Positions 4,326 to 31,626 of a stretch of DNA of 32,000 nt are shown here, in pieces. Within the stretch, counting starts at the first letter, position 1, and each line of letters begins with the position of its first letter. The notes below the pieces were generated by a model. The model ran no database searches. It worked only from the letters and a program-made list of their open reading frames with translations, and was not told where the DNA came from. This DNA comes from Candidatus Saccharimonadota bacterium (lineage in GTDB: Bacteria; Patescibacteriota; Gracilibacteria; UBA1369; 2-02-FULL-48-14), in contig OZ246396.1 of NCBI GenBank assembly GCA_965230905.1, positions 540,001-572,000 of the forward strand. The letters run 5' to 3'. A program made the position numbers and the translations under genes.

Positions 4326-5366
4326 TTAAAATTGTGAATTAAAACGCAGGTCGCCGCTTTGCAAATGGCGGATGTCGTCGATGCCGTATTTCATCATCAC
4401 CAGGCGAGTGAGGCCGAAACCAAAGGCCCAGCCTTGGTATTTTTTGCTGTCGATGCCTCCGGCTTTGAGCACGTTGGGATGGACCATTCCACAGCCCATG
4501 AACTCAATCCAACCGGTTCGTTTGCAGACCTTGCAACCTTTTCCGTCACAAAATACACAGGACATGTCGAGTTCAATTCCCGGTTCCACAAAAGGGAAGT
4601 AGCCGGGTCGGAAACGCACTTTCATTTCTTTTTTAAAGAGTCGGCTCAAAAAATCCTGCATCACGGCTTTTAAATTCGCGATGGAAATATCGGTGTCGAT
4701 GAGCAGGCCTTCCACTTGATCAAACGTGTGCTCGTGGGAGGCGTCGGTGGCTTCGTTGCGGAACACGCGGCCTGGCACAATAATACGCAGTGGCGCGCCG
4801 TACTTCCGCATCGCGCGGACTTGGTTGGGCGAGGTGTGGGTACGCAGCACGAGCTTGCCTTCTTCCGCGTCAGCGGCTTTGTCTATAAAGAAAGTGTCCT
4901 GCATGTCGCGTGCCGGGTGGTGAGACGGGATGTTGAGTCCTTCAAAATTATAAAATTCACTTTCAATTTCGGGCCCATCCACAATGCTGAAGCCCATTTG
5001 TTGGAAAATTCGTTCCACTTCCATTTGCGTTTGAGGAATGGGGTGGATGTGTCCAACGCCATAGGCAGTGCCCGGTGCGGTGAGGTCCAGCCATTCGCTT
5101 TCCAGCGCCTTGTCGATTTCTGCGCGTTCGAGTGCGCGGCCACGCGTTTCAAAAGCCGCTTCCAATTCCACTTTCAGTTCATTGATCGCCTTCCCCGTTT
5201 TTTGTTTATCTTCAATAGAGAGGTCTTTCACCCCTTTTAAAAGCTCGGTGAGCTGGCCACTTTTTCCTAAATATTTTCGCTCAGTTTCCTTGAGCTGATC
5301 TGTGCTTTTTGCTGACGCGAGGCCCTCTAAAGCTTCGGTACGAAGAGATTTAAGCTTTTCTAGCAT
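4326..5366 (-). CDS. pheS: Phenylalanine--tRNA ligase alpha subunit
   Basis: 346-aa ORF with a class II aaRS core typical of PheS (RTHTSPNQVR, FRNEATDASHEHTFDQVEG, GWAFGFGLTRLVM). Confidence 0.95.
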   Translation of the reverse strand: MLEKLKSLRTEALEGLASAKSTDQLKETERKYLGKSGQLTELLKGVKDLSIEDKQKTGKAINELKVELEAAFETRGRALERAEIDKALESEWLDLTAPGTAYGVGHIHPIPQTQMEVERIFQQMGFSIVDGPEIESEFYNFEGLNIPSHHPARDMQDTFFIDKAADAEEGKLVLRTHTSPNQVRAMRKYGAPLRIIVPGRVFRNEATDASHEHTFDQVEGLLIDTDISIANLKAVMQDFLSRLFKKEMKVRFRPGYFPFVEPGIELDMSCVFCDGKGCKVCKRTGWIEFMGCGMVHPNVLKAGGIDSKKYQGWAFGFGLTRLVMMKYGIDDIRHLQSGDLRFNSQF

Positions 5367-6956: not shown

Positions 6957-9191
6957 ATGCCACCAAAAAATTTAGTCATTGTAGAGTCACCTGGAAAGAT
7001 CAAAACGATCTCCAAATATTTGGGGCCTGATTATACAGTTATGGCTTCTATGGGCCACGTTCGTGACTTGCCAAAGACGAAAATGGGAATCGATACGAAG
7101 AAAAATTTTGAACCAAAATACATTATCCCGAAAGAGAAGATAAAAGTGATCAGCGGACTGAAGGCTAAAATAAAGAAAGACACCGTTGTATACATCGCAA
7201 CGGACGAAGACCGTGAAGGAGAAGCCATTGGATGGCATTTGGTGGAGGCACTGGAACTCGCGGATCGCAAGGATTTGAAGCGAATTGTGTTTCACGAAAT
7301 CACCAAGCAGGCGATTTTGGATGCCGTTGCGAATCCACGTACTATTAATAAGGACCTGGTGGATGCGCAGCAGGCGCGACGAATTTTGGATCGGCTCGTG
7401 GGTTATGAACTTTCACCGCTACTGTGGAAAAAAATTAAATACGGACTCAGTGCCGGACGCGTGCAAAGCGTGGCCGTGCGACTCGTGGCGGATCGTGAAC
7501 GTGAAATTCAAGCGTTTAAGCCGGAAGAATACTGGAGTTTGATTGCTGAAATGACTCCCGAAAAAACCAAGGAGCAGTTTTTGGCTAAGCTCACCAAATT
7601 CAAAGGCGAGAATATAAAAGTGACCAATGAAGCGCAGTCCAAAGAAATTTTAAAAGCGCTGGAAGGGGCGGATTATGAAGTGACGAGTGTGGAGAAAAAA
7701 GAAGTGAACCGAAATCCCGCCGCACCATTTACGACGTCAACTTTGCAACAGGAGGCCGCGCGAAAACTGGGCTTCTCCGTAAAGAAAACCATGATGGTGG
7801 CGCAGCATTTGTACGAAGGTGTGGAACTCGACACCGGGCACGAAGGGCTTATCACTTACATGCGTACGGACTCTGTGAACATTTCACAAATAGCGCTGAA
7901 GCAAGCGCAGGAAGTTATTGCCGCGCAGTTTGGAAAAGAATACGGACTCAGCGAACCCCGCTTATATAAAGGGAAGAAGGGAGCGCAGGAGGCGCACGAA
8001 GCAATTCGTCCATCGGACCTTTCTCGCACACCGGATTCCATTAAAAAATATTTGGAGAAAGACGAGCTTCGTTTGTATGAACTTATTTGGAAACGAACGC
8101 TGGCGTGCCAAATGGCGCAGGCGATTTTGGATCAAGTGGGGGTGGACGTCACCGCCAATGACTACACCTTCCGCGCAACTGGGCAGACCATCCGCTTTTC
8201 TGGATTCATGCAGGTGTATATGGAAGGCCAGGACGATGAAGATGAGGAAGATGAAGAAGGAATTTTGCCTATACTCACCGAAGGCGAACACCCTAAACTG
8301 AAGAAACTTTTGCCGGAGCAGCATTTCACCAAACCGCCCGCCCGTTACACGGAAGCGAGCTTGGTGAAAAAATTGGAAGCCGAGGGGATTGGACGTCCAT
8401 CAACGTACGCGCCCACCATTTCAACCGTGCTCACTCGTGGATACATTGAAAAGGAAGCCAAGCAACTCAAGCCTACGGATATTGGATTTTTGGTGAACGA
8501 CTTTTTGGTGGAGCATTTCCCCAAAGTACTCGATTACCAGTTCACCGCTCGCATGGAAGAAATGCTCGATGAAGTGGAAGATGGAAAGGGGACGTGGCAA
8601 AGTGAAATCCGCGAGTTTTATGAGCCTTTCCACAAGCTCGTGGACGACAAAATGGAGAACATCAAAAAAGAAGACGTGATCACCGAAAAGACCGACGAAA
8701 TTTGTGACCTCTGTGGCAAGCCCATGATGATCAAATTTGGACGTTATGGAAAATTCCTTTCCTGTACAAATTTCCCGGAATGTAAAAACGCCAAACCGTT
8801 GGATGAAGCGACGGGGAAGGTGGATGAAGCCAAGGAAAAAGAAGTGGCCGATTTGCAAAAGAAACTCGGCGGCAAGCCTTGCCCTAAATGTGGTAAACCC
8901 ATGGAAGTGAAGACCGGACGCTTTGGTCAGTACCTGGCGTGCACGGATTATCCAAAATGCAAAACCAGCGAAACCATTTTGAAGACCATTGGAATCAAGT
9001 GTCCTGAGTGCGGCAAAGGCGAACTCGTGGAACGTCACACCAAGCGCGGCGGCAAGCCGTTCTATGGATGCAATAAATATCCAACGTGTAAGTTTGCGGT
9101 GTGGGAAAAGCCCAACTCCAGCGAGCACGCGGCTGAGCTGAAAGAAGCCCAGGGCAAGAAAAAGAAGAAAGGCGAAGAGGACGAGGAATAA
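6957..9191 (+). CDS. topA: DNA topoisomerase I with three C-terminal C4 zinc ribbons
   Basis: 744-aa ORF. Toprim N-terminus LVIVESPGKIKTISKYLG and ATDEDREGEAIGWH; active-site Tyr region GLITYMRTDS. Three CxxC...CxxC ribbons (CDLCGKP..CTNFPECK, CPKCGKP..CTDYPKCK, CPECGKG..CNKYPTCK). Acidic insertion DDEDEEDEE and a K/E-rich tail. Confidence 0.96.
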   Translation: MPPKNLVIVESPGKIKTISKYLGPDYTVMASMGHVRDLPKTKMGIDTKKNFEPKYIIPKEKIKVISGLKAKIKKDTVVYIATDEDREGEAIGWHLVEALELADRKDLKRIVFHEITKQAILDAVANPRTINKDLVDAQQARRILDRLVGYELSPLLWKKIKYGLSAGRVQSVAVRLVADREREIQAFKPEEYWSLIAEMTPEKTKEQFLAKLTKFKGENIKVTNEAQSKEILKALEGADYEVTSVEKKEVNRNPAAPFTTSTLQQEAARKLGFSVKKTMMVAQHLYEGVELDTGHEGLITYMRTDSVNISQIALKQAQEVIAAQFGKEYGLSEPRLYKGKKGAQEAHEAIRPSDLSRTPDSIKKYLEKDELRLYELIWKRTLACQMAQAILDQVGVDVTANDYTFRATGQTIRFSGFMQVYMEGQDDEDEEDEEGILPILTEGEHPKLKKLLPEQHFTKPPARYTEASLVKKLEAEGIGRPSTYAPTISTVLTRGYIEKEAKQLKPTDIGFLVNDFLVEHFPKVLDYQFTARMEEMLDEVEDGKGTWQSEIREFYEPFHKLVDDKMENIKKEDVITEKTDEICDLCGKPMMIKFGRYGKFLSCTNFPECKNAKPLDEATGKVDEAKEKEVADLQKKLGGKPCPKCGKPMEVKTGRFGQYLACTDYPKCKTSETILKTIGIKCPECGKGELVERHTKRGGKPFYGCNKYPTCKFAVWEKPNSSEHAAELKEAQGKKKKKGEEDEE

Positions 9192-9264
9192 GAAAAACCT
9201 TTCTGCTAGTTTGCTCAGCACGGGAGCCTTTATGTGCTTCACAAACCACCAGAAAGGTTTTTCT
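9191..9264. repeat. Conserved-core hairpin element, copy 1
   Basis: Perfect 15-bp stem 9191-9205 / 9250-9264. Inner helices are GTTTG/CAAAC and AGCAC/GTGCT, closing the 12-nt loop GGGAGCCTTTAT. The 26-nt core 9215-9240 is identical to 22544-22569. Confidence 0.8.
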
Positions 9265-9356
9265 ACGTATTTCCCTGAGAGGGGACTCTTAGGGAAACCC
9301 CTTGGAAAGAAATTTACAGTTTGCTAAACTGGGGCCACTCCTACTCCACGCTATTT

Positions 9357-12080
9357 ATGAAAAAATTGTTCTACGCCATTTTATTGGCCATGCTCATTGT
9401 GCCTATTTTTGTGCAAAAGCAAATGGTGGAAAAAGCGGATGCGGTCTGGCCTTTTACGGATGAACCCGGGCATGGTTTTGACAGTGGAGATGTCTGTGGA
9501 TTCGTTCATTCGGTTGCTGCTAGCTACCCGTCCATCGCGGCTTTGACTGCAACAGTGAACTTTGGTGTGGTGGCGGATGCGAATCAAGGTTGTGTGGATG
9601 AGAATGGATACTTTTTTTCCTCCAGCGCTCGTGAATCAGAGGCTATTTATAGCCGCACGGTGGGAGGGACCACCACTGCTTACACTCTAGACTTTGACTT
9701 CAACACCGCTTCCAATGTTTTTGTGGATCCTACAACCGGGGAGTGGAGTGGGGCTGCGCGAATCACCAGCTCAAGCACCCCTGCCATTCCGCCCGCTCAG
9801 CGTTGGGTGGATTTTGATTGGGACTGCAGCGATTCTTGTGGGCTCGACCCGGAGGATTACCATGTGTACACCGATATGACGACGGGAGCGGTGAATGGCT
9901 ATGCGTGGAGCGACTATTTTAATAGTTACATTAGCTTCAATGGACTCACCCAAGAACTTCCTGAACGGGGCATCACCACTCGTGTACAGATTTTGGCCAA
10001 CGACACCGACTACGGCCCTGATGATGTGGATGGTAGCACCGCGCCTTTGGCGGATGGAGCTGAATACTGGCGAGTGAAGGTTCAATTTATAGATTCGCTT
10101 ACGGGCATAGCGTTGGGTTCGGATGACCTCGATTCCTTGGCCATTACGGTTGAGGCTACCAGTGATTCTAATGTTTACCTCAACCAAGTGGAAAATAGCG
10201 GGGACGCTATTGAAGAGTCCTATGACAACACGCATTTGGGTTGCAGCTCGGGTAGCTATTGCGTGATCACGGAGGACGATGGTTCCGAAAGTTTTAATAC
10301 CTTTGTATATTCCGGTTCGCCCACCTCACAGTGGATCGGCGGGGACACGGATACGGATGCAAGCATAGAGAGTCCGGCCGACCGGGACGGGTGTATTTGG
10401 ATTTATGCCGATCAAGGTACGGGTTCTTGTGATGGAAGCAGCTCCACCAAAGAAGAGGTGTTTTTTGATCGCCAAAGTGATCGCAATAAATATGAAATTG
10501 ACTACATAAATATAGCGCCAAAGTTTGCCGGAGATCGGGACGTGAGCATGTACACATATGACACCGGCAGTGAGGCTTATGTAGAAGTGACGGGTGCCGC
10601 AGGGACTTGGTGGCAATATTATCCAGGTGAAGACGCGGCGGATCTTAGCTACCGGCCCCGTTTCCAAATCTCAAAATTTGTTTCTGTTTTTGATGGAGAG
10701 GATCACACGGCTATTTCAGAAAATGCCAGCACCATTCAATACTTGAGGACAGAGGGCAGGATGTCTACGACGTCCACTGCGTTTCTAAGTTATAGTGGGG
10801 CTGTCGCCAAGCCAAGCTACCGTGTGTATTACCAAATGGATGCGACGTCCAGTGCAAGCTCCGTTGCCACCAATGACCAGAAGCTTTTAATAGATACCGA
10901 TGTGATTCCGAGCGCGGCTATGTCCGCCGACGCAGAGGCCACTAAACGTACGGATTCTTTGACGGCTATGAATAGCTCTTACACCAACTATAAAAAGAGT
11001 TACGCCTTGGATTACGATCAAACGGAGACATACCTTTCCACCTGTGGAACTATTGGGTATGCGCCTTGTACTGCGGGGACCAATACGCTTGTGGATCCCA
11101 CCGCCGAACTGTGGATCTGTGATGACGCGCCCCTAACCACCATGTCCGCCGGTCAAGCGTCTTGTTACTACGCTGAATATTTGGAGCACATCGACCGCCA
11201 CGCGGCCCCAGAAAGCATGCTGGTGATTGGAGCCATCAACTCTGTGATCGATGCCGACGATGTGCTGGAAGAAGTTTCGGATACTGAGGGCACGGTGCTC
11301 TCCGTTTTGGGAACCACCGAGACCATCAACTTGCGCAATAAAATGTACGCTCAAGTGCTGCGTTACACCTTGGGCCAAAAGGCTAGTTCTGGGGAGTACA
11401 CCGACGATAGCGGTAGCTGTGCCCCTTCTTCCGATTTAGTGGAACTCATGGATGGATGGTTGGTGTTTGCGGAAGGAGACGTGACCATTGATTGTTTTGA
11501 CGGCAGCGATAAGACCTTGGTGGTGCTGGGCGGGGATGTCTACATCAACACCGATATCACGAATGGACGCATGGGAATCATTGCCTTTAAGCGCGATGGG
11601 CTGGGAGGAAATGTTTATGTGGATAATGAGGTTACCGACCTGTACGCCAATATGTTCTTGGATGGAAGCTTGTTCAGCTACGACGGAACCGCGCCTACGG
11701 GAACCGTTCCTGAATGGGGGAGTGATGAAGAGAGGCTGGAGGAGCTGATGCATCAGCTCTACCTCAAGGGGTCCTTGGTTTCCCGCAACACGGTGAATGG
11801 AGCGGGCACGGTGGACGGTAGCTATGACTTGGGAGATGGGACCACCACCACGGATTATGAGGTGGCCCGCGAGTATGACCTCAACATGATCCGTCAGTAC
11901 CGCCAGTGCCACCCAATTAAGGACGGTGCACCCGACACCACGACTAGGGAAGCGTGTAACGAAGGCGAAAAACTCTCCGAGTATGGCCAAGCCAACGGCA
12001 CCAACAACTCCTTCATTTTGGATTATGAACCGGCGGATGGACTGCCTGTGTTCCAAGTGGAATCTGGACTCTTCAACTAA
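9357..12080 (+). CDS. Large secreted/surface protein of unknown function
   Basis: The ORF track starts at TTG 9321. I prefer ATG 9357, which gives MKKLFYAILLAMLIVPIFV (signal/anchor). The protein is about 907 aa, rich in D/T/S/G with many Cys, and I recognise no catalytic motif. The C-terminal third has beta-helix-like stretches (TLVVLGGDVYINTDITNGRMGIIAFKRDGLGGNVYVDNEVTDLYANMFLDGSLF). Confidence 0.75.
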   Translation: MKKLFYAILLAMLIVPIFVQKQMVEKADAVWPFTDEPGHGFDSGDVCGFVHSVAASYPSIAALTATVNFGVVADANQGCVDENGYFFSSSARESEAIYSRTVGGTTTAYTLDFDFNTASNVFVDPTTGEWSGAARITSSSTPAIPPAQRWVDFDWDCSDSCGLDPEDYHVYTDMTTGAVNGYAWSDYFNSYISFNGLTQELPERGITTRVQILANDTDYGPDDVDGSTAPLADGAEYWRVKVQFIDSLTGIALGSDDLDSLAITVEATSDSNVYLNQVENSGDAIEESYDNTHLGCSSGSYCVITEDDGSESFNTFVYSGSPTSQWIGGDTDTDASIESPADRDGCIWIYADQGTGSCDGSSSTKEEVFFDRQSDRNKYEIDYINIAPKFAGDRDVSMYTYDTGSEAYVEVTGAAGTWWQYYPGEDAADLSYRPRFQISKFVSVFDGEDHTAISENASTIQYLRTEGRMSTTSTAFLSYSGAVAKPSYRVYYQMDATSSASSVATNDQKLLIDTDVIPSAAMSADAEATKRTDSLTAMNSSYTNYKKSYALDYDQTETYLSTCGTIGYAPCTAGTNTLVDPTAELWICDDAPLTTMSAGQASCYYAEYLEHIDRHAAPESMLVIGAINSVIDADDVLEEVSDTEGTVLSVLGTTETINLRNKMYAQVLRYTLGQKASSGEYTDDSGSCAPSSDLVELMDGWLVFAEGDVTIDCFDGSDKTLVVLGGDVYINTDITNGRMGIIAFKRDGLGGNVYVDNEVTDLYANMFLDGSLFSYDGTAPTGTVPEWGSDEERLEELMHQLYLKGSLVSRNTVNGAGTVDGSYDLGDGTTTTDYEVAREYDLNMIRQYRQCHPIKDGAPDTTTREACNEGEKLSEYGQANGTNNSFILDYEPADGLPVFQVESGLFN

Positions 12081-20479: not shown

Positions 20480-20565
20480 GTGGCGGAGAGTAGCAATTGC
20501 ATTGATAAATTTCATAAAAAGCCTTTTAATTTCCTCTTAGCTACAATCTATTCACCCATTACTCA

Positions 20566-22106: not shown

Positions 22107-22144
22107 ATAAGGAGTGGTTAAAGGGGGCTAACCGTACTTGGTCC

Positions 22145-22177
22145 AAAAAAAGCCCCGAAGTTTTGGGAGCTTTTTTT
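22145..22177 (-). terminator. Intrinsic terminator after rpmB
   Basis: Stem AGCCCC (22151-22156) / GGGAGCT (22165-22171) with one bulge, flanked by A-run 22145-22151 and T-run 22171-22177. On the minus strand it follows the rpmB stop. Confidence 0.6.
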
Positions 22178-22209
22178 GGTGCTTATTCTGAACGCAACGA
22201 AACTATATT

Positions 22210-22473
22210 TTATTTTAGTTTTTTCTTCAAGCTTTTTTTCGCACTTTTCTTTGCGATAGCGTGAATTTGAGCTTCAAACTTCTTAGGGTTCTTAGCCATA
22301 GTGCGGAGCGCACGAGCGGTTATTTTCAGGAATACCTTGGCCCCGGTCTTAGCATCGATCACGGTTTTCTTCACCAAATTAGGCAAGAATCGTCGGTTAG
22401 ACTTCTTGTTGGAGTGAGACACCTTGTGTCCACTCTTGGGTCGCGCACCTGTTAATTGGCAAACTTTAGACAT
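22210..22473 (-). CDS. rpmB: 50S ribosomal protein L28 with a Lys-rich C-terminal extension
   Basis: [33 protein letters not shown]. The track start at 22479 is GTG; ATG 22473 gives the canonical MSKVCQ N-terminus. Confidence 0.92.
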
Positions 22474-22482
22474 AGCCACGGT

Positions 22483-22511
22483 ATCTTAAGCGACAAAAGG
22501 GCTTTTTGCAA
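22483..22511 (-). promoter_or_regulatory. Candidate rpmB promoter
   Basis: On the minus strand: TTGCAA (22506-22511), 17-nt spacer, TAAGAT (22483-22488). ATG 22473 lies 9 nt downstream. Confidence 0.45.
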
Positions 22512-22520
22512 GCCGATTTT

Positions 22521-22592
22521 AGAAAGGACTCTTGGCTGTCTGTTCAGCACGGGAGCCTTTATGTGCTTCTCAAACAGCCAAGAGTCCTTTCT
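22521..22592. repeat. Conserved-core hairpin element, copy 2
   Basis: Perfect 19-bp stem 22521-22539 / 22574-22592, plus 2 further bp after one mismatch. The core 22544-22569 is identical to 9215-9240, with the same AGCAC/GTGCT helix and 12-nt loop. Confidence 0.8.
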
Positions 22593-22642
22593 AGGTCAGT
22601 GAAAAAATATTCTAAAGGGATTTTTATTGCTATACTGCTCAC

Positions 22643-23260
22643 ATGTTTCTTTCTCCCTATTATCTGATTGCCTTGGTGCTGGTGCTCACCTTTCACGAAT
22701 GCAGCCACGCCTGGACGGCGCACCGCTTGGGAGACAATACGGCGAAAAGGGAGGGAAGGCTGACGCTGAACCCTTTGGCGCATCTGGATATTTTGGGCAC
22801 GCTGATGCTGTTTTTTGTGGGAATAGGGTGGGGGAAGCCGGTTCCAGTGAATCCACAGAATTTTGAAAAACCCGTGCGAGATCAAGCTTTAACGGCGCTC
22901 GCGGGGCCACTCGCTAACCTGGCGCTGGCCTTCATCGCAGCCATTCCTTACAGCTACCTAAGCCAAGTGACGCCGCTGTATGCGCTCAGCGAAGCGGTGC
23001 TGGATGTGAGTATTGTGCTCTTTCTGTTCAATATGCTGCCCATTCCGCCCCTCGACGGGTCTAAATTTATGGGCATTTTTGTGCCGCGCCGCTTTTATCC
23101 GCTGTATGAAAAGTTTCTGAGCAAGGGTTTGCCGTACTTTATTGTCCTGATGTTCGTAGATTTGTACTTCTTTGAGGAGCTGTTTGGCATGTCCTTTATT
23201 TGGACAGCGGTTTCGCAGCTCACCTTCTGGCTTAAGGCCGCCATCCTTCTGATTGTGTAA
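22643..23260 (+). CDS. M50 (site-2 protease family) membrane metalloprotease
   Basis: 205-aa polytopic ORF with the HExxH motif in a TM segment (FHECSHAWTAHRLGD) and the second M50 motif FNMLPIPPLDGSKF. Confidence 0.85.
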   Translation: MFLSPYYLIALVLVLTFHECSHAWTAHRLGDNTAKREGRLTLNPLAHLDILGTLMLFFVGIGWGKPVPVNPQNFEKPVRDQALTALAGPLANLALAFIAAIPYSYLSQVTPLYALSEAVLDVSIVLFLFNMLPIPPLDGSKFMGIFVPRRFYPLYEKFLSKGLPYFIVLMFVDLYFFEELFGMSFIWTAVSQLTFWLKAAILLIV

Positions 23261-23330: not shown

Positions 23331-24635
23331 ATGAAAAAAATCCTTTCAAGCTTTTTAGTAGTTGCCTTTATAGTAAGTTCGGTGCCCAGTGCCCTTGCGG
23401 CAACGGTGACCGATTTGCGAAGTCCCAGCGAGGTTCTTTCTTACAATGCGAATCTTCTTACGGGGCTATTCAATGACCAAACCGATGAGGCGCTGAGCAC
23501 CGACGCCGAAGATGTGAACATTCCTGCTGCGGAGGACGATGCTTTTTACATCGCTTACGACGAGAAATTCAACGGCATTGAGATAGATATCGACGTTTCT
23601 TTGGAAGGGTATGCCCTGGCCGAGCTTTTCTCCCAAGGTACCTATGTTCTTGAATACTGGGATGGGAATTGGAAAACCCTTTCCAGCGACAAATCGAATA
23701 ATGATCTGAAAAATGAGTCTACGGGCGACAACTTTTCTTTAAGCTGGGACCGTCCTGAGGATTGGGAAACCGTGGTTGTGAATAGTTCGGACGCACTTTA
23801 TTACGTTCGTTTGCGCATCACTGATTCATATAAATCTGATGATGAACAAGATGCGGAAGCACTGGCTTCACAGGTTTGGGTGAAGGATAGCGAGATTGTG
23901 GTGGTTGACGATGGAGATGAAGACGACGATGGCGACGGACTCACGAAAGATGAAGAAGACGACTATGGAACCAGTGACAGCGACGTGGACAGTGATAATG
24001 ATGGCGTGGAAGATGGCACCGAGGTGGATATGGGGACGGATCCCGATGATTCCGCGGATTACTTGGCGAATTACCCTGATTATGAAGATGACTGTAACGA
24101 TCCTTTTGACGACACCAATAATCACTGGGCTGAAGAATCCATATGTGCGCTGTACTCTGCAGGAGTGGTGGAAGGGCGCAGCCATGATGAATATGAACCC
24201 AATATGTCGGTGACGCGTGCGGAATTCTTGAAAATTGCTCTGCTGAATGCCGAACTCACGGTTACGGAAAACGACAATTACGGATACACCGATGTGGACA
24301 GCGACGATTGGTTTTACTCTTACGTCACCTACGCAACGGGTGAGGGCTACACCGAAGGATACTATGATAATAGCTTTCGGCCCAATGATTCTATCAACCG
24401 CGCGGAGGCCATGACCATTTTGATGCGGATTGCAGGCGTTCCCGAAGATGAGGAGGTGGACAGTGACTTTGAGGACATGGACGGAGATGAATGGTTTGCG
24501 TGGGCAGTTATGGAAGCCGTGGACGAACACATTGTGGAAGGCTATGACGATGGCGAGTTTAAACCTGAAAACTACATCACCCGTGCAGAAACGGCGGTCA
24601 TCGCTCGGCGCGCTTGGTATGTCTACTACGAATAA
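23331..24635 (+). CDS. Acidic secreted protein with TSP3-like Ca-binding repeats and three C-terminal SLH repeats (S-layer/cell-wall-anchored candidate)
   Basis: Signal peptide MKKILSSFLVVAFIVSSVPSALA. DSDVDSDNDGVEDGTEVDMGTDPDD resembles DxDxDG TSP3 repeats. SLH repeats: FDDTNNHWAEESICALYSAGVVEG...VTRAEFLKIAL, YTDVDSDDWFYSYVTYA...INRAEAMTILMR, FEDMDGDEWFAWAVMEAVDEHIVEG...ITRAETAVIARR. Confidence 0.85.
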   Translation: MKKILSSFLVVAFIVSSVPSALAATVTDLRSPSEVLSYNANLLTGLFNDQTDEALSTDAEDVNIPAAEDDAFYIAYDEKFNGIEIDIDVSLEGYALAELFSQGTYVLEYWDGNWKTLSSDKSNNDLKNESTGDNFSLSWDRPEDWETVVVNSSDALYYVRLRITDSYKSDDEQDAEALASQVWVKDSEIVVVDDGDEDDDGDGLTKDEEDDYGTSDSDVDSDNDGVEDGTEVDMGTDPDDSADYLANYPDYEDDCNDPFDDTNNHWAEESICALYSAGVVEGRSHDEYEPNMSVTRAEFLKIALLNAELTVTENDNYGYTDVDSDDWFYSYVTYATGEGYTEGYYDNSFRPNDSINRAEAMTILMRIAGVPEDEEVDSDFEDMDGDEWFAWAVMEAVDEHIVEGYDDGEFKPENYITRAETAVIARRAWYVYYE

Positions 24636-25047: not shown

Positions 25048-27243
25048 ATGAAAAAGCTAATCACACTCCTGGGGTTTGTGACGTATATTTTTGGCGCTAA
25101 CACGGCCTTTGCCATTGGGGTGGGGCTGGTGTCTGCTAATAATGAAGACGTCAACGTGTACCCGGATGGAGTCTTTTTAGATGGTATACTCGAGACCTCG
25201 TGGACCACGGATGCGTCTGATTTGGATGCAGATGATGTGCCGCTTCCCACTAAAGATAGCATGGTGACGGAAGTTCTTTATATTGGTTCCAACACGGTTT
25301 TCGATATCATTGATTTTGATATCACTACTGCGGGAGTTAGCAGCAGTACTTGTGTTGTTTGTCATCACTACACGGCCGAATACTACGATGGAGGGACCAG
25401 CGACTGGGAAACTTTAAGCTACACCGACAACACCAATAATTTTGAAACGGTAGGAGAGGGAACCTGGGAATTTGACGTACCTGCTGCGTGGGATTCTGCT
25501 GCGGGTAAGACTACGGTGGATGGCCAAACACTCTATTGGATGCGTTTAACCCCAAGGAGTACGACCACCATCACTTCTTCAGCGGATGCTGGGGAAATTG
25601 CTCTGCGTGCGTACAATGTGGAACTCACTCTTGAAGATGAACTTGGAGGGCCTATGGAAGGTTTCGTTTCTGAAGATTTCACTGTGAGCGCAGGAACGTC
25701 CAATGACGTGGCTGGATTCCGAGACATGGAAGATGGAGTTTACCAATTCGCTTTGGATACGGGACTTTCTGATAACAATTATCGTATTACTGCCAATGAA
25801 AATGGCTATGTAGATGAAGTCATTAACACCGGGGTGCTTGCTTCCATTAAAAAAACTTTGAGTGGGGAAATGCAATTTGCACACAAGATTACTATTATTG
25901 ATAACGACACCGTCGACCCTATAACGCCCGATACAGTCAGTATTGGATCGGTTAGCTGTACCATCTCTACAAGCACGGCCTACTGCCCTGCGAGCACCAC
26001 TCAAGATGGAACGTCTACGGATGTTGAGTCCGTTACCGTTACGAAATCCGGCTATGAATCCCGTACTACTGTGCTTAGTTCAGACCGTGATATAGATGCC
26101 GACTCTCAGGTGACCACGAGCGTGGCTCTTACGGAAACCGTAGCGACGGCTGATCCAACCGAAGCCAATCTCACCATTAATGTTACTGACGAAGATGGGG
26201 ATGCGATCACGAGCTTACTGGAAGGAGACTTCGATGTGTCTGGAGGAACTTCCAACGCTATTCACGCTTTCACCAACAGTGGAAGTGGGAACTATGTGCT
26301 CAGCCTTTCCATTGATAACAGCGACAACAGCTACGAGATTGAGGTTTCTGAAGATGGTTACGTGGCCGAAGACGTCACTACGGGTGAAATGACCGGGGAC
26401 GGCAGCAAGAGCGTTTCTTTGGACTTTGGATATAAATTGACGGTACTTGATGAGGACGGGGACACCGTTTCTGGCGCTTCGGTGAAAGCGGGAGACGACT
26501 ACGGCACGAGCTGTAGCTATTTGGGAGCTGGAGTTTATGGATGCGCGGTTCCGGTTGGGGATACGGACCTCGATTACAAAGTTACTTTGAGCGATTACGA
26601 AACGGAGTACGGCGAATTCAATTCAGCTCGTACCGACCACACGGATGCACAAGTGAGTGAAAGCGTGAGTTTGACCGTGGGGGAGAGCGATTGTGACACG
26701 GACTTCGATGACATTTACGGACACTGGGCGGAAGACTACATCACTGAACTTTACTGCCGTGGGGTGGTGAACGGACTGGATGACGACACCTTTGGACCCA
26801 GCAACTACGCAAGTCGTGCGGAGTTCCTAAAAATGGCTCTGCTCAACGCAGGTTACGATGTGGACGGGGCTTCTGGTGAAAGCTTCTCCGATGTTTCTTC
26901 TGGAGACTGGTTCTACGAATACGTTTCCTTTGGAGTGGAGGAAGACATCATCGAAGGATATAGCGACGATACTTTCCGTCCAAACAACCAAATCAACCGT
27001 GCGGAGGCGCTGGTGATTACCATGCGTATTGCTGGAATCGATGAATACGACGTGGACAGTGACTGGGATGAATTCGATGACGTAGATGACGATGATTGGT
27101 ATGCCTACGCCGTAGAAACCGCTGCCGATGAAGGCATTGTGGAAGGATACAGCGACGGGGACTTCAAGCCAGGCAACCCCATCACCCGTGCCGAAGTAGC
27201 TGCGATTTCTGTACGAACTTATGACGAATACTACGCGGACTAA
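25048..27243 (+). CDS. Acidic secreted protein with internal Ig/CarboxypepD_reg-like repeats and three C-terminal SLH repeats; paralog of 23331..24635
   Basis: Signal peptide MKKLITLLGFVTYIFGANTAFA. The N-terminal domain is shared with the paralog (EYYDGGTSDWETLSY / LYWMRLTP versus EYWDGNWKTLSS / LYYVRLRIT). Internal repeats include LTLEDELGGPMEGFVSEDFTVSAGTSND... and LTINVTDEDGDAITSLLEGDFDVSGGTSNA.... SLH repeats: FDDIYGHWAEDYITELYCRGVVNG...SRAEFLKMAL, FSDVSSGDWFYEYVSF...INRAEALVITMR, FDDVDDDDWYAYAVETAADEGIVEG...ITRAEVAAISVR. Confidence 0.85.
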   Translation: MKKLITLLGFVTYIFGANTAFAIGVGLVSANNEDVNVYPDGVFLDGILETSWTTDASDLDADDVPLPTKDSMVTEVLYIGSNTVFDIIDFDITTAGVSSSTCVVCHHYTAEYYDGGTSDWETLSYTDNTNNFETVGEGTWEFDVPAAWDSAAGKTTVDGQTLYWMRLTPRSTTTITSSADAGEIALRAYNVELTLEDELGGPMEGFVSEDFTVSAGTSNDVAGFRDMEDGVYQFALDTGLSDNNYRITANENGYVDEVINTGVLASIKKTLSGEMQFAHKITIIDNDTVDPITPDTVSIGSVSCTISTSTAYCPASTTQDGTSTDVESVTVTKSGYESRTTVLSSDRDIDADSQVTTSVALTETVATADPTEANLTINVTDEDGDAITSLLEGDFDVSGGTSNAIHAFTNSGSGNYVLSLSIDNSDNSYEIEVSEDGYVAEDVTTGEMTGDGSKSVSLDFGYKLTVLDEDGDTVSGASVKAGDDYGTSCSYLGAGVYGCAVPVGDTDLDYKVTLSDYETEYGEFNSARTDHTDAQVSESVSLTVGESDCDTDFDDIYGHWAEDYITELYCRGVVNGLDDDTFGPSNYASRAEFLKMALLNAGYDVDGASGESFSDVSSGDWFYEYVSFGVEEDIIEGYSDDTFRPNNQINRAEALVITMRIAGIDEYDVDSDWDEFDDVDDDDWYAYAVETAADEGIVEGYSDGDFKPGNPITRAEVAAISVRTYDEYYAD

Positions 27244-30181: not shown

Positions 30182-31303
30182 CTATTCTCTGGTTAAAATT
30201 ACCCCTACTTCTAAAGACTCAGTTCCACTTTCGTAACGCTCTTGTTGAGCTTGGTCGATCTCTTCGAATCTTTGTTCTATGAGGCCTTGATTTTGGCTCA
30301 CCACGCTGCCCGCGATTCCGGTGGCGGCGAACCAAAGGACGGTGAAGAATATGATGGCGTTGGTACTCAAGATGCTGCGATTTTTTAGGAAACTGAGACC
30401 AATGAAGAAGAGAAGAAGTAGGGGCAAGAGGACGATGAGATAAACAGAAACGATGAAGACGATGTACATGAAATCGGTCGCCACGATGAAGTCTTTGAGG
30501 GTGTAAGTGGTGTCGGGAATCACGCCGCCGGAGAGCTGCCAAGTGAGAGCGAAGCTGAGTGCGCCGGCTCCTAAAATACCGCCGACGGCGAAGACAATAC
30601 CGAGCAAAATGCGGAGCACATTTAAGAGAGCATGGAAGATTTTGCCGAGCACTTGGAAGAACTGGGTGAGCAGCAGCTTTCCTTTAGCCCCGGCGTCTTT
30701 TACGCCACTTAGATCTTTTTTTTTTAAGTTCTCGACGCCTTTTTTCACGGATTTTTCGATCTCATGAAGGGTGAGGCGTTCGCCGCGCATCTCTGCTTTT
30801 TGAGCCGTGGTTTCGGCCACGGGCATAATGAGCCACAAGATGACGTAAATCACGATTCCAAAGCCGCCAAATAAAATAGTGATGAAGAAAATGAGGCGTA
30901 CGAGCACGGTTTCGATGCCAAAGTAGGCGCCGAGGCCGCTGCAGACTCCGGCAATGATTGCGTCGTCGGGGTCGCGATAGAGTTTTTTCTCGCCAGCTTC
31001 CTTGGGTTCGTCTGGAACTTCATCGTCATCCTCTTCCTCGCTCATTTTTTTGAAATCTTTCAAGGTGCCGATTTGTTCAATAATTCCGTCTACATCTTTT
31101 TCGGTCACGGCTCCGTCCTTGTTCTTCCGCTTGGAAAATTTCTCCGCAATGCTGGCTTCCAGATCTTCCACAATTTCGTCGCCGTCTTTGTCTTTGGAGA
31201 AATATTTCTTAATGGAGTCGAGGTAGGTTGAGAGTTTTTCGAAGGCATCGTCCTCCACATTGAAGACCATGCTGCCGATGGTGATGTTAATGACTTTTTT
31301 CAT
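30182..31303 (-). CDS. PspC-domain membrane protein
   Basis: 373-aa ORF. PspC domain LYRDPDDAIIAGVCSGLGAYFGIETVLVRLIFFITILFGGFGIVIYVILWLIMP, an acidic N-terminal cytoplasmic region, and several C-terminal TM helices. Confidence 0.85.
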   Translation of the reverse strand: MKKVINITIGSMVFNVEDDAFEKLSTYLDSIKKYFSKDKDGDEIVEDLEASIAEKFSKRKNKDGAVTEKDVDGIIEQIGTLKDFKKMSEEEDDDEVPDEPKEAGEKKLYRDPDDAIIAGVCSGLGAYFGIETVLVRLIFFITILFGGFGIVIYVILWLIMPVAETTAQKAEMRGERLTLHEIEKSVKKGVENLKKKDLSGVKDAGAKGKLLLTQFFQVLGKIFHALLNVLRILLGIVFAVGGILGAGALSFALTWQLSGGVIPDTTYTLKDFIVATDFMYIVFIVSVYLIVLLPLLLLFFIGLSFLKNRSILSTNAIIFFTVLWFAATGIAGSVVSQNQGLIEQRFEEIDQAQQERYESGTESLEVGVILTRE

Positions 31304-31626
31304 GAGTTGAGGGAATTAATAGAGGTGTATAGAGATTTCCAGGTGTCTTTGAGGCTTTCGAGTGCGCTGCGGCCTTTGTCCGTGAGCTTGTAGTATTTGC
31401 GGGGCGGACCGGACTTGGATTCTTTCCACGCGTACTCCACCAGTTCCTGCCGTTTTAGGCGGCTGAGTAGGGGGTAGAGCGTGCCTTCCACCACAATCAG
31501 TTCGGTGCCGCGCAGTTTTTTAAGAATGTCTGAAGCGTAGAGTTCCGCACCCTCAATCACCGCCAAAATCGCGAACTCCAAAATACCCTTCCGCATTTGG
31601 GCCTGAATATTTTCTAAGTAGTCCAT
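31300..31626 (-). CDS. PadR family transcriptional regulator
   Basis: 108-aa ORF with a winged-helix PadR signature: ILEFAILAVI...YASDILKKL...GTLYPLLSRLKRQELVEYAWKESKSGPPRKYYKLTDKG. It overlaps the PspC gene by 4 nt. Confidence 0.88.
   Translation of the reverse strand: MDYLENIQAQMRKGILEFAILAVIEGAELYASDILKKLRGTELIVVEGTLYPLLSRLKRQELVEYAWKESKSGPPRKYYKLTDKGRSALESLKDTWKSLYTSINSLNS

Follow-up and report, generated by a model that had tools for sequence, protein, structure and literature searches.

Introduction

Why should two hairpins in one small bacterial genome share a central 26 nt letter for letter, when the arms that enclose this centre differ between them and yet remain paired? The question arises from a 32,000-nt stretch of DNA (positions 540,001 to 572,000 of contig OZ246396.1; this whole stretch is called the window below), in which the first base of one 74-nt hairpin is also the final base of the topA stop codon, and a second hairpin lies in the spacer between the ribosomal protein gene rpmB and a peptidase M50 gene. 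A preliminary description of the first hairpin, made from the letters alone, had read the pattern as selection on structure plus loop sequence, and had proposed either a structured RNA of the host, such as a small RNA (sRNA) or a cis-regulatory 5' element, or a palindromic DNA site; a selfish repeat of the MITE (miniature inverted-repeat transposable element) or REP (repetitive extragenic palindrome) type was named as the alternative. Overall, we think it probable that what we see is a small non-coding insertion element, of which the hairpin is one copy and which is part of a dispersed palindromic family in Candidatus Peribacteria and similar in kind to MITEs, to the hairpin-forming REP doublets called REPINs and to the enterobacterial repetitive intergenic consensus (ERIC). 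The best reading is that the family is new and of an already known kind of element, and that it is not an ancient or conserved cis-regulatory RNA.

The window belongs to a 1.30-Mb genome, a single contig from Hainich groundwater (ENA ERZ1292638 NODE_1; NCBI GCA_038078855.1), of which approximately 45 kb were read in all, namely the window and some 13 kb beyond it. The assemblies L001, L002, L003 and L012 represent the same population. Relatives were retrieved with NadE and carry the labels Candidatus Peribacteria, Peregrinibacteria or Gracilibacteria, all within the candidate phyla radiation (CPR); their NadE identity to the window is 93% in L015, the closest relative found, 83% in L006, 82% in L007, 77% in L016 and 68% in L009. 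CPR bacteria have small, streamlined genomes, and to our knowledge little has been recorded about their repeats. A dispersed hairpin that has been active since the split of closely related species would mean that such genomes still host non-autonomous mobile DNA, and its filled and empty sites can be used as markers of strain and species history. For genome scans the case is also a warning, since a mobile palindromic repeat can likewise give rise to perfect covariation around an invariant loop, a combination that usually counts as proof of a functional RNA.

Two hairpins around one invariant apex

Copy 1 of the hairpin repeat (9191-9264, 74 nt) has 31-nt arms, interrupted by internal loops, and a 12-nt terminal loop. 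Its outermost segment, 9191-9205, pairs perfectly with 9250-9264; further in, GTTTG (9209-9213) pairs with CAAAC (9242-9246) and AGCAC (9217-9221) with GTGCT (9234-9238), closing the loop GGGAGCCTTTAT of the plus strand (9222-9233). Copy 2 (22520-22593, again 74 nt) is enclosed by a perfect 19-bp outer stem, 22520-22538 with 22575-22593, and stands as a direct repeat of copy 1 at a distance of 13.3 kb. The two have in common the 26-mer TCAGCACGGGAGCCTTTATGTGCTTC, present at 9215-9240 and, identically, at 22544-22569; the window contains no further exact match, nor any at up to three mismatches (0.00 expected in shuffled sequences). Read on the minus strand, this apex runs GA, AGCAC, AUAAAGGCUCCC, GUGCU, GA. 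Thus the stems, the loop, the recurrence of the core and the 19-bp stem of copy 2 are all in the sequence as first described.

An inverted-repeat scan returned these two hairpins as the two longest local inverted repeats of the window, and both fold far better than shuffled sequence (z of -5.5 to -9.7, with none of 200 shuffles equally stable). Compared in register, the copies have 29 pairs of which 96.6% are paired, and 11 of these pairs are changed on both sides as against a single pair changed on one side only; the early statement of divergent yet fully paired outer arms holds. None of 500 shuffles reaches this, and sliding the partners by one to three columns lowers the pairing to approximately 40-52%. 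By manual count the arms of the two copies appear homologous, at some 55-67% identity depending on the alignment. Copy 2 is identical in L001, L002, L003 and L012, and identical hairpin copies are carried by other assemblies of this population. The invariant loop, taken on the plus strand, runs GGGAG-N5-ATG (9222-9236 and 22551-22565), which resembles a ribosome-binding site followed by a start codon; the open reading frames (ORFs) that follow are 9-31 codons long and unconserved.

Filled and empty sites

The surroundings of both hairpins can be compared directly with the relatives, which keep the gene order HU, topA, large protein, PGM ... NadE, SmpB ... rpmB, M50, SLH protein. Site 1, on the topA stop codon, lacks the hairpin in all five of L015, L006, L007, L009 and L016, and site 2, in the rpmB-M50 spacer, lacks it in the three relatives L006, L007 and L009. 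In the window, where the topA ORF ends at 9191 and the gene for the large protein starts at 9357, as the preliminary description had placed them, 165 nt separate the two genes, against 9-63 nt without a hairpin in the relatives (63 nt, with the same gene order, in L015). The rpmB-M50 spacer measures 60-79 nt in L006, L007 and L009, and that of the window is longer by approximately 104 nt. The flanks align cleanly on either side of the additional sequence.

At site 1, L015 reads GAGGAG-TA-GGCAAAGACCTTGGAAAG where the window reads GAGGAA-TA, a 99-nt insert, and TA-GGGAAACCCCTTGGAAAG; alignment with this empty site puts the insertion between GAGGAA-TA and TA-GGGAAACCCCTTGG. There is a single TA in L015 (GAGGAG-TA-GGCAAAGACC) and one on each side of the insert in the window, at 9189-9190 and 9290-9291, which is a possible 2-nt target duplication. 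At site 2 the additional sequence, in comparison with L006 and L009, lies between GCC(G/A)ATTT and TTTTnnTG. Each insert of approximately 100 nt comprises the 74-nt hairpin and a tail of 20-25 nt: the tail of insertion 1 (9265-9289, 25 nt) is part of the inserted segment, and that of insertion 2 (22594-22618) has its right boundary either at TA 22613-22614 or at GATTTT(T) 22619-22625. Local alignment finds no significant similarity between the two tails (p approximately 0.49), and the similarity of the flanking direct repeats at the window sites is not significant either.

Since each site holds some 100 bases more than its counterparts in the relatives, both hairpins are lineage-specific insertions, and their absence from the orthologous sites of the relatives examined makes them recent ones. 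Parsimony over five relatives at site 1 and three at site 2 favours insertion in the lineage of the window, and on these alignments the inserts at sites 1 and 2 are shown to postdate the split from the nearest sampled relative. We also considered that the arms had been copied from the target site. A comparison of left flank or arm with the right junction showed no significant similarity (p = 0.83 for copy 1, and p = 0.048, at a different spot, for copy 2); such copying contrasts, moreover, with the apparent homology of the arms of both copies, and we rejected it.

Further members of the family

The exact 20-mer core has no match in 185,579 species-representative GTDB genomes, in the metagenomes of the Joint Genome Institute (JGI) or in IMG/VR. 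A degenerate pattern, in which the loop and its closing pair were held exact and transitions were allowed elsewhere in the apex, matched three JGI metagenome contigs (L018, L019 and L020), and all three proved to hold true members. In their short copies the 12-nt loop is identical and the flanking GA...GA is kept, and U-A replaces C-G at the third pair of the inner stem. The middle stems are different and again well paired, and they are followed by a second tier of GGGAATTCGGAAAT-type outer arms, giving hairpins of 107-115 nt at -48 to -69 kcal/mol. Outer arms of the type GGAAT(T/C)C are shared among the JGI copies, whereas the window copies have no conserved termini, and the TA flanks seen at site 1 are not consistent at the JGI copies.

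A covariance-model search, which the preliminary description had proposed, was run with three models (R1, R2 and R3) built from the copies, over the JGI contigs and the relatives' loci. Copy 1 scores 96.7 and 86.8 bits on the minus strand, against 46.7 and 31.8 bits on the plus strand, and copy 2, likewise on the minus strand, scores 99.8 and 91 bits. The models find nine further copies in the 24 kb of JGI sequence: four on L019, two on L018, two on L020, and a diverged one at L019 4577-4647. No copy was found in 96 kb from the loci of seven relatives, and no third one in the part of the window genome that was read. The phage collection and viral contigs contained no match to the repeat, and nothing similar was found in the account of complete Peribacteria genomes (PMC4736985) or elsewhere in the literature searched.

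All JGI copies are intergenic, among housekeeping genes that include dnaE, aspS, a tRNA gene, murG and a HesB-like gene, and most of them stand in adjacent pairs: L018 793-904(-) and 927-1000(+); L020 3968-4041(-) and 4084-4157(+); L019 4577-4647(+) and 4689-4762(+); and L019 8847-8916(-) and 8949-9064(+). Usually a long-type copy stands beside a short-type or another long-type one, with three of the four pairs in opposite orientation, an arrangement that resembles REP doublets or clusters. In the long variant (L019 8970-9043, L018 812-885 and L020 3968-4041), the loop AUAAAGGCUCCC is split by approximately 44 nt that form a 9-bp hairpin of their own, with the conserved palindromic tip GGATCATG(C/T)ATCC. 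This variant carries GGAGG-N7-ATG, similar to a ribosome-binding site plus start codon and followed by unconserved ORFs of 39-41 codons; it could be what remains of a parent element's gene start. An identical 11-mer, CGGATTTAAAA, recurs about 30 nt beyond the outer arm at L018 ~1040-1055 and L019 ~4795-4810, and the repeat unit may, given this 11-mer common to two copies, extend beyond the outer arm. On L018 the 11-mer lies inside the 3' end of the HesB-like ORF, whose TGA stop overlaps the outer arm, an echo of copy 1 at the topA stop.

At least one of the three contigs can be assigned to a sister species. The DnaE of L019 is NCBI MFA5789274.1, and the NadE of L007, identical to P0126, is MFA5789119.1, 155 accession numbers away; a second accession pair, MFA4815541.1 and MFA4815309.1, is likewise close. 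This closeness indicates one metagenome-assembled genome for L019 and L007, and so points to L019 belonging to the sister species with 82% NadE identity, in which the family occupies other loci and both window sites are empty. On this assignment, other members of the family, in short and long forms, are shown at unrelated intergenic sites of a sister species.

Conservation, folding and strand

Across copies the apex is fixed, with the GA dinucleotides outermost, the 5-bp stem inside them and the loop AUAAAGGCUCCC at the tip, and the arms around it can vary provided that pairing is kept. Conservation climbs from base to apex, the outer arms being the most different, the middle stems less so, and the apex unchanged. 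Over the five short copies, 93% of the cells of 24 pairs are paired and 15 of the 24 pairs are changed on both sides; none of 500 shuffles matches this, and every control is far lower. In the long form, eight pairs covary among three copies. Selection on the structure plus the loop, as originally suggested, is therefore borne out by double-sided change, retained pairing and an invariant loop. Energies of the family's hairpins range from -31 to -70 kcal/mol (z of -4.8 to -10.7).

The strand on which the fold would act is less clear. The five short copies fold better, by 3-10 kcal/mol, on the strand that corresponds to the minus strand of the window, and a manual count on their fixed structure gives some ten G-U pairs but not one A-C opposition. 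This is suggestive for the short copies, but it is contradicted by the long ones, for which the opposite strand gives an equally good or better fold. The orientation to flanking genes is likewise mixed, with three copies co-oriented (window copy 2 and both of L019) and three antisense (window copy 1 and the short copies of L018 and L020). Only tRNAs pass the gathering thresholds of Rfam, and in E-value mode generic miRNA-precursor hairpins alone appear, at 23-27 bits against thresholds of 80-100; the family has no Rfam match, in line with the preliminary description, which recognised no named RNA or repeat family in it.

A probable mobile palindromic repeat

Lineage-specific insertion between genes at sites without relation to one another, a density of several copies within a few kilobases of a sister species, clustering, and short and long forms without a link to gene class or orientation together point to a small non-autonomous insertion element and away from an inherited regulatory RNA. 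Two observations expected of a MITE were made: several dispersed non-coding copies (two in the window and nine in the JGI contigs), and orthologous sites that are filled in one genome and empty in others. The MITE or REP alternative of the preliminary description was thus closer to the truth than its favoured options, although the arms are not conserved and target duplication is not established.

How might such an element spread? We propose that a folded single strand, of DNA or possibly of RNA, is the form in which it propagates or is retained, and that its apex is read by a protein encoded elsewhere in the genome, much as REP-associated tyrosine transposases (RAYTs) and IS200-type enzymes handle REP hairpins. 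The need for the fold would then keep the arms complementary. Replication that switches template from one arm to the other, copying changes across, may add to this and could keep the pairing without selection. The plus strand of the window has a positive GC skew (+0.09), which is no decisive evidence for a single-stranded DNA model. A full-length parent element would carry an ORF between ...GAAGCACATAAATCTA and GCTCCCGTGCTGA..., and local effects on the host would be by-products; at site 1, for example, the hairpin with its A-tract and T-tract behind the topA stop may terminate or stabilise a transcript.

Several points weigh against this reading. Only two copies are visible in the portion of the 1.3-Mb window genome that was read (~45 kb), and no transposase, RAYT or other mobilising gene was found in any locus read. 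No convincing target-site duplication emerges, the TA being possible at site 1, ambiguous with GATTTT at site 2 and without a counterpart at the JGI copies. Conservation is highest in the apex and not in the termini, whereas a classical MITE with terminal inverted repeats shows the opposite. The arms of the window copies differ by approximately 45% though the insertions are younger than the split from the 93% relative, and diverged source copies must therefore exist, of which none was seen. Finally, the stability of the short copies on one strand and their G-U pairs would also suit an RNA.

That last point leads to the strongest of the rival explanations, a functional structured RNA on the minus strand (an sRNA, or a hairpin that binds protein or is processed by RNase) carried around by duplication or by a mobile element. 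Its apex would be a binding module for protein or RNA, and the conserved GA...GA beside the 5-bp stem might pair as tandem sheared G-A, making a structured internal loop. The strong covariation, the loop that is invariant across species and the strand preference of the five short copies all agree with an RNA, and so do the minus-strand -10-like motifs TAAGAG and TAGAAT in the tails, 15-21 nt from the hairpin. We nevertheless judge it unlikely. Rfam has no match, the orthologous sites of all relatives examined are empty, the copies share no conserved promoter or terminator, their orientation and context with respect to host genes are inconsistent, the long variants fold equally well or better on the other strand, and both window copies would be antisense to or upstream of known transcription units. 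For a host sRNA or a cis-regulatory 5' element, as in the preliminary description, the absence from relatives, the unrelated sites and the mixed orientation leave no support. Less probable again are acquired intrinsic terminators or insulators that stop read-through, for instance from topA into the gene for the secreted protein. Copy 1 does start at the topA stop, with AGAAAAA...TTTTTCT at the base of its stem, the hairpin-free topA spacers of relatives are short (at most 63 nt), and the lineage has terminators built of A-tract, stem and T-tract, such as that at 22143-22179. Copy 2, on the other hand, lies between divergent promoter-like sites, with no gene ahead of it whose transcript could be ended; neither copy is called by the terminator scan; an intrinsic terminator has a G+C-rich stem with a short loop and a T-run directly behind it, whereas here the T-runs, which are short, fall within the stem; flanking T-tracts are absent from the JGI copies; and the invariant 26-nt apex is not needed for termination. 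We accordingly rejected the intrinsic terminator class, and a terminator role at topA may exist as a side effect.

The remaining two explanations we consider far weaker. A palindromic site in double-stranded DNA, be it an operator, a recombination site or an att site, would account for outer stems that are Watson-Crick only, as in a DNA palindrome, and for direct repeats with an identical 26-bp core. It is very improbable, for one sequence-specific dimer could not recognise both sets of differing arms and the common core is palindromic over 5 bp only, and on these grounds the palindromic-site option of the preliminary description fails. The 13.3 kb between the copies, furthermore, are core genes whose synteny is kept, without hairpins, in the relatives; this is not an island bounded by att sites, and we rejected that candidate. 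Scarcely credible, finally, is a micro-ORF, in which the plus-strand frame VCSAREPLCASQT or the GGGAG-N5-ATG of the loop would encode a small peptide. A semi-conserved region of 43 nt has five differences, of which, by manual count, four are synonymous when read in one frame of the plus strand, and look-alikes of a ribosome-binding site and ATG occur both in the loop and, on the other strand, in the long variant. The third codon positions pair together, though, so that the differences are not independent (estimated p approximately 0.1); a start codon (ATG, GTG or TTG) is missing from this frame in copy 1; the ORFs, of 9-41 codons, are unconserved past the apex; and the apex core, translated in five open frames, has no match among 5.8 billion proteins.

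Relation to known mobile repeats and hairpins

Regardless of how it moves, a dispersed palindromic insertion element invites comparison with described families, and in each case the likeness is partial. ERIC, also called intergenic repeat unit (IRU), comprises 127-bp imperfect palindromes of enterobacteria with a conserved central inverted repeat, whose presence varies between related strains. Like them, the Peribacteria hairpin is an imperfect palindrome of similar size with a conserved centre, intergenic and often placed after stop codons, present in some genomes and absent in others, and with longer variants that contain internal insertions; unlike them it has two-tier stems with arms wholly different between copies, and it is unrelated in sequence and comes from a different phylum. 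The Correia elements of Neisseria and the repeat units of pneumococcus (RUP) are MITEs of 100-155 bp that duplicate TA and form hairpins when transcribed. Size, hairpin potential, intergenic insertion and the possible TA at the site 1 junctions are similar, whereas those elements have conserved terminal inverted repeats and a known transposase family, and in the present family conservation of the termini is poor and no TA duplication is confirmed. The family departs from textbook MITEs in two respects: the apex rather than the termini is invariant, and the arms diverge completely yet stay paired.

Single-stranded hairpins recognised by their structure are also known from the attC recombination sites of integrons. 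Imperfect pairing and the primacy of structure over sequence are common to both, with single-strand recognition being our proposal here, but attC conserves the base of its stem (R and L boxes; R''/L''...L'/R') and varies at the apex, the opposite pattern. With conservation reversed, and with integrase and cassette array absent from the loci read, membership in this class was rejected. IS200/IS605-derived elements have subterminal hairpins at both ends and insert 3' of a fixed tetra- or pentanucleotide without duplication; here there is one long hairpin per unit and the left flanks differ (GAGGAATA as against GCCGATTT), and this class too was set aside. The same goes for a CRISPR repeat, one unit of an array with spacers of similar length, as the copies stand singly at 13.3 kb from each other and the GTTTG...CAAAC ends are lost in the JGI copies.

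The closest described analogue of the Peribacteria hairpin is the REPIN, a REP doublet that forms a hairpin and is mobilised by RAYT transposases (Bertels & Rainey 2011, PMC3116915). REPINs are mobile hairpins of approximately 100 nt in which compensatory changes are common, which insert into or beside other copies, and for which a single strand has been proposed as the active form (PMC3116915). The points of likeness are the many non-coding intergenic hairpins of ~100 nt, the compensated pairing, the adjoining copies and the proposed single-stranded form. At the same time, a REPIN conserves two REP 16-mers towards its ends and varies in the spacer, whereas here the apex is invariant and the arms vary, and neither a RAYT gene nor a REP-type flanking motif was found in the loci read.

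A bolder, and in our opinion unlikely, interpretation would be the following: a structure-specific mobile hairpin of CPR bacteria whose apex would be the recognition module of a novel enzyme acting on single-stranded nucleic acid, or alternatively a mobile non-coding RNA gene, with its layered palindromes built by repeated insertion at the tip. The palindromes do lie in layers, with outer arms around middle arms around the core stem, and in the long form one more hairpin at the apex, and conservation rises towards the apex. If this were true, such insertion at the tips of hairpins would spread the element in a manner unlike that of MITEs with terminal repeats, and an apex that serves as the handle of a new single-strand enzyme, or a mobile RNA gene, would make the family the more interesting.

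Neighbouring genes and other features of the window

The gene topA (6957-9191, plus strand), whose stop codon abuts copy 1, is identified by Pfam Topoisom_bac (4e-130), Toprim and Zn_ribbon_Top1; its called start at 6957 differs between same-population assemblies, giving 713 or 744 aa. The large protein gene that follows copy 1 (9357-12080) encodes 907 aa without Pfam domains. Copy 2 sits between the divergent genes rpmB (22210-22473, minus strand), identified from its translation as ribosomal protein L28, and M50 (22643-23260, plus strand; Pfam PF02163), downstream of the hairpin. The L28 of the window, 87 aa in total, has a lysine-rich C-terminal extension.

On the minus strand before rpmB stands TTGCAA-N17-TAAGAT (TTGCAA at 22504-22509), conserved in L006, L007 and L009, and from the alignment with the relatives we read it as the putative promoter of that gene. 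A TGCTATACT box, TGnTAnACT in the alignment, lies 6 nt before the M50 ATG with its geometry conserved in the same three relatives; it is promoter-like for M50, a gene that looks leaderless. By our own reading of the sequence, as distinct from a tool result, copy 2 would lie upstream of both of these divergent sites and, if that is right, would be part of neither transcript. TTGCAA is its own reverse complement and is conserved in the relatives (window 22495-22645), and it could serve as a shared -35 box for rpmB and M50. Downstream of rpmB, at 22143-22179, a perfect hairpin flanked by A7 and T7 (CCAAAAAAAGCCCCGAAGTTTTGGGAGCTTTTTTTGG) resembles a bidirectional terminator and is kept in every relative read.

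The SLH-domain proteins of the window (434 and 731 aa) have acidic repeats of the D-V-D-S-D type in common, at 23900-24500 and 27030-27080, which appear as the direct-repeat families D3, D12 and D13. Among the best 120 matches there was no further SLH-domain paralogue from the window genome; a third SLH protein stands directly past the right end of the window (L012 1-635). Near padR (window 31300-31626 and beyond) the ENA assembly of this population differs from the NCBI one, with PadR at 98 or 108 aa and the product of the neighbouring gene at 189 or 223 aa. In L006, approximately 430 nt (7469-7904) separate a DUF1697 gene from the homologue of the gene for a 280-aa protein, where the corresponding spacer of the window has 86 nt (20480-20565); the longer spacer contains a strong hairpin (7777-7856, -37.6 kcal/mol) and may perhaps represent a different insertion.

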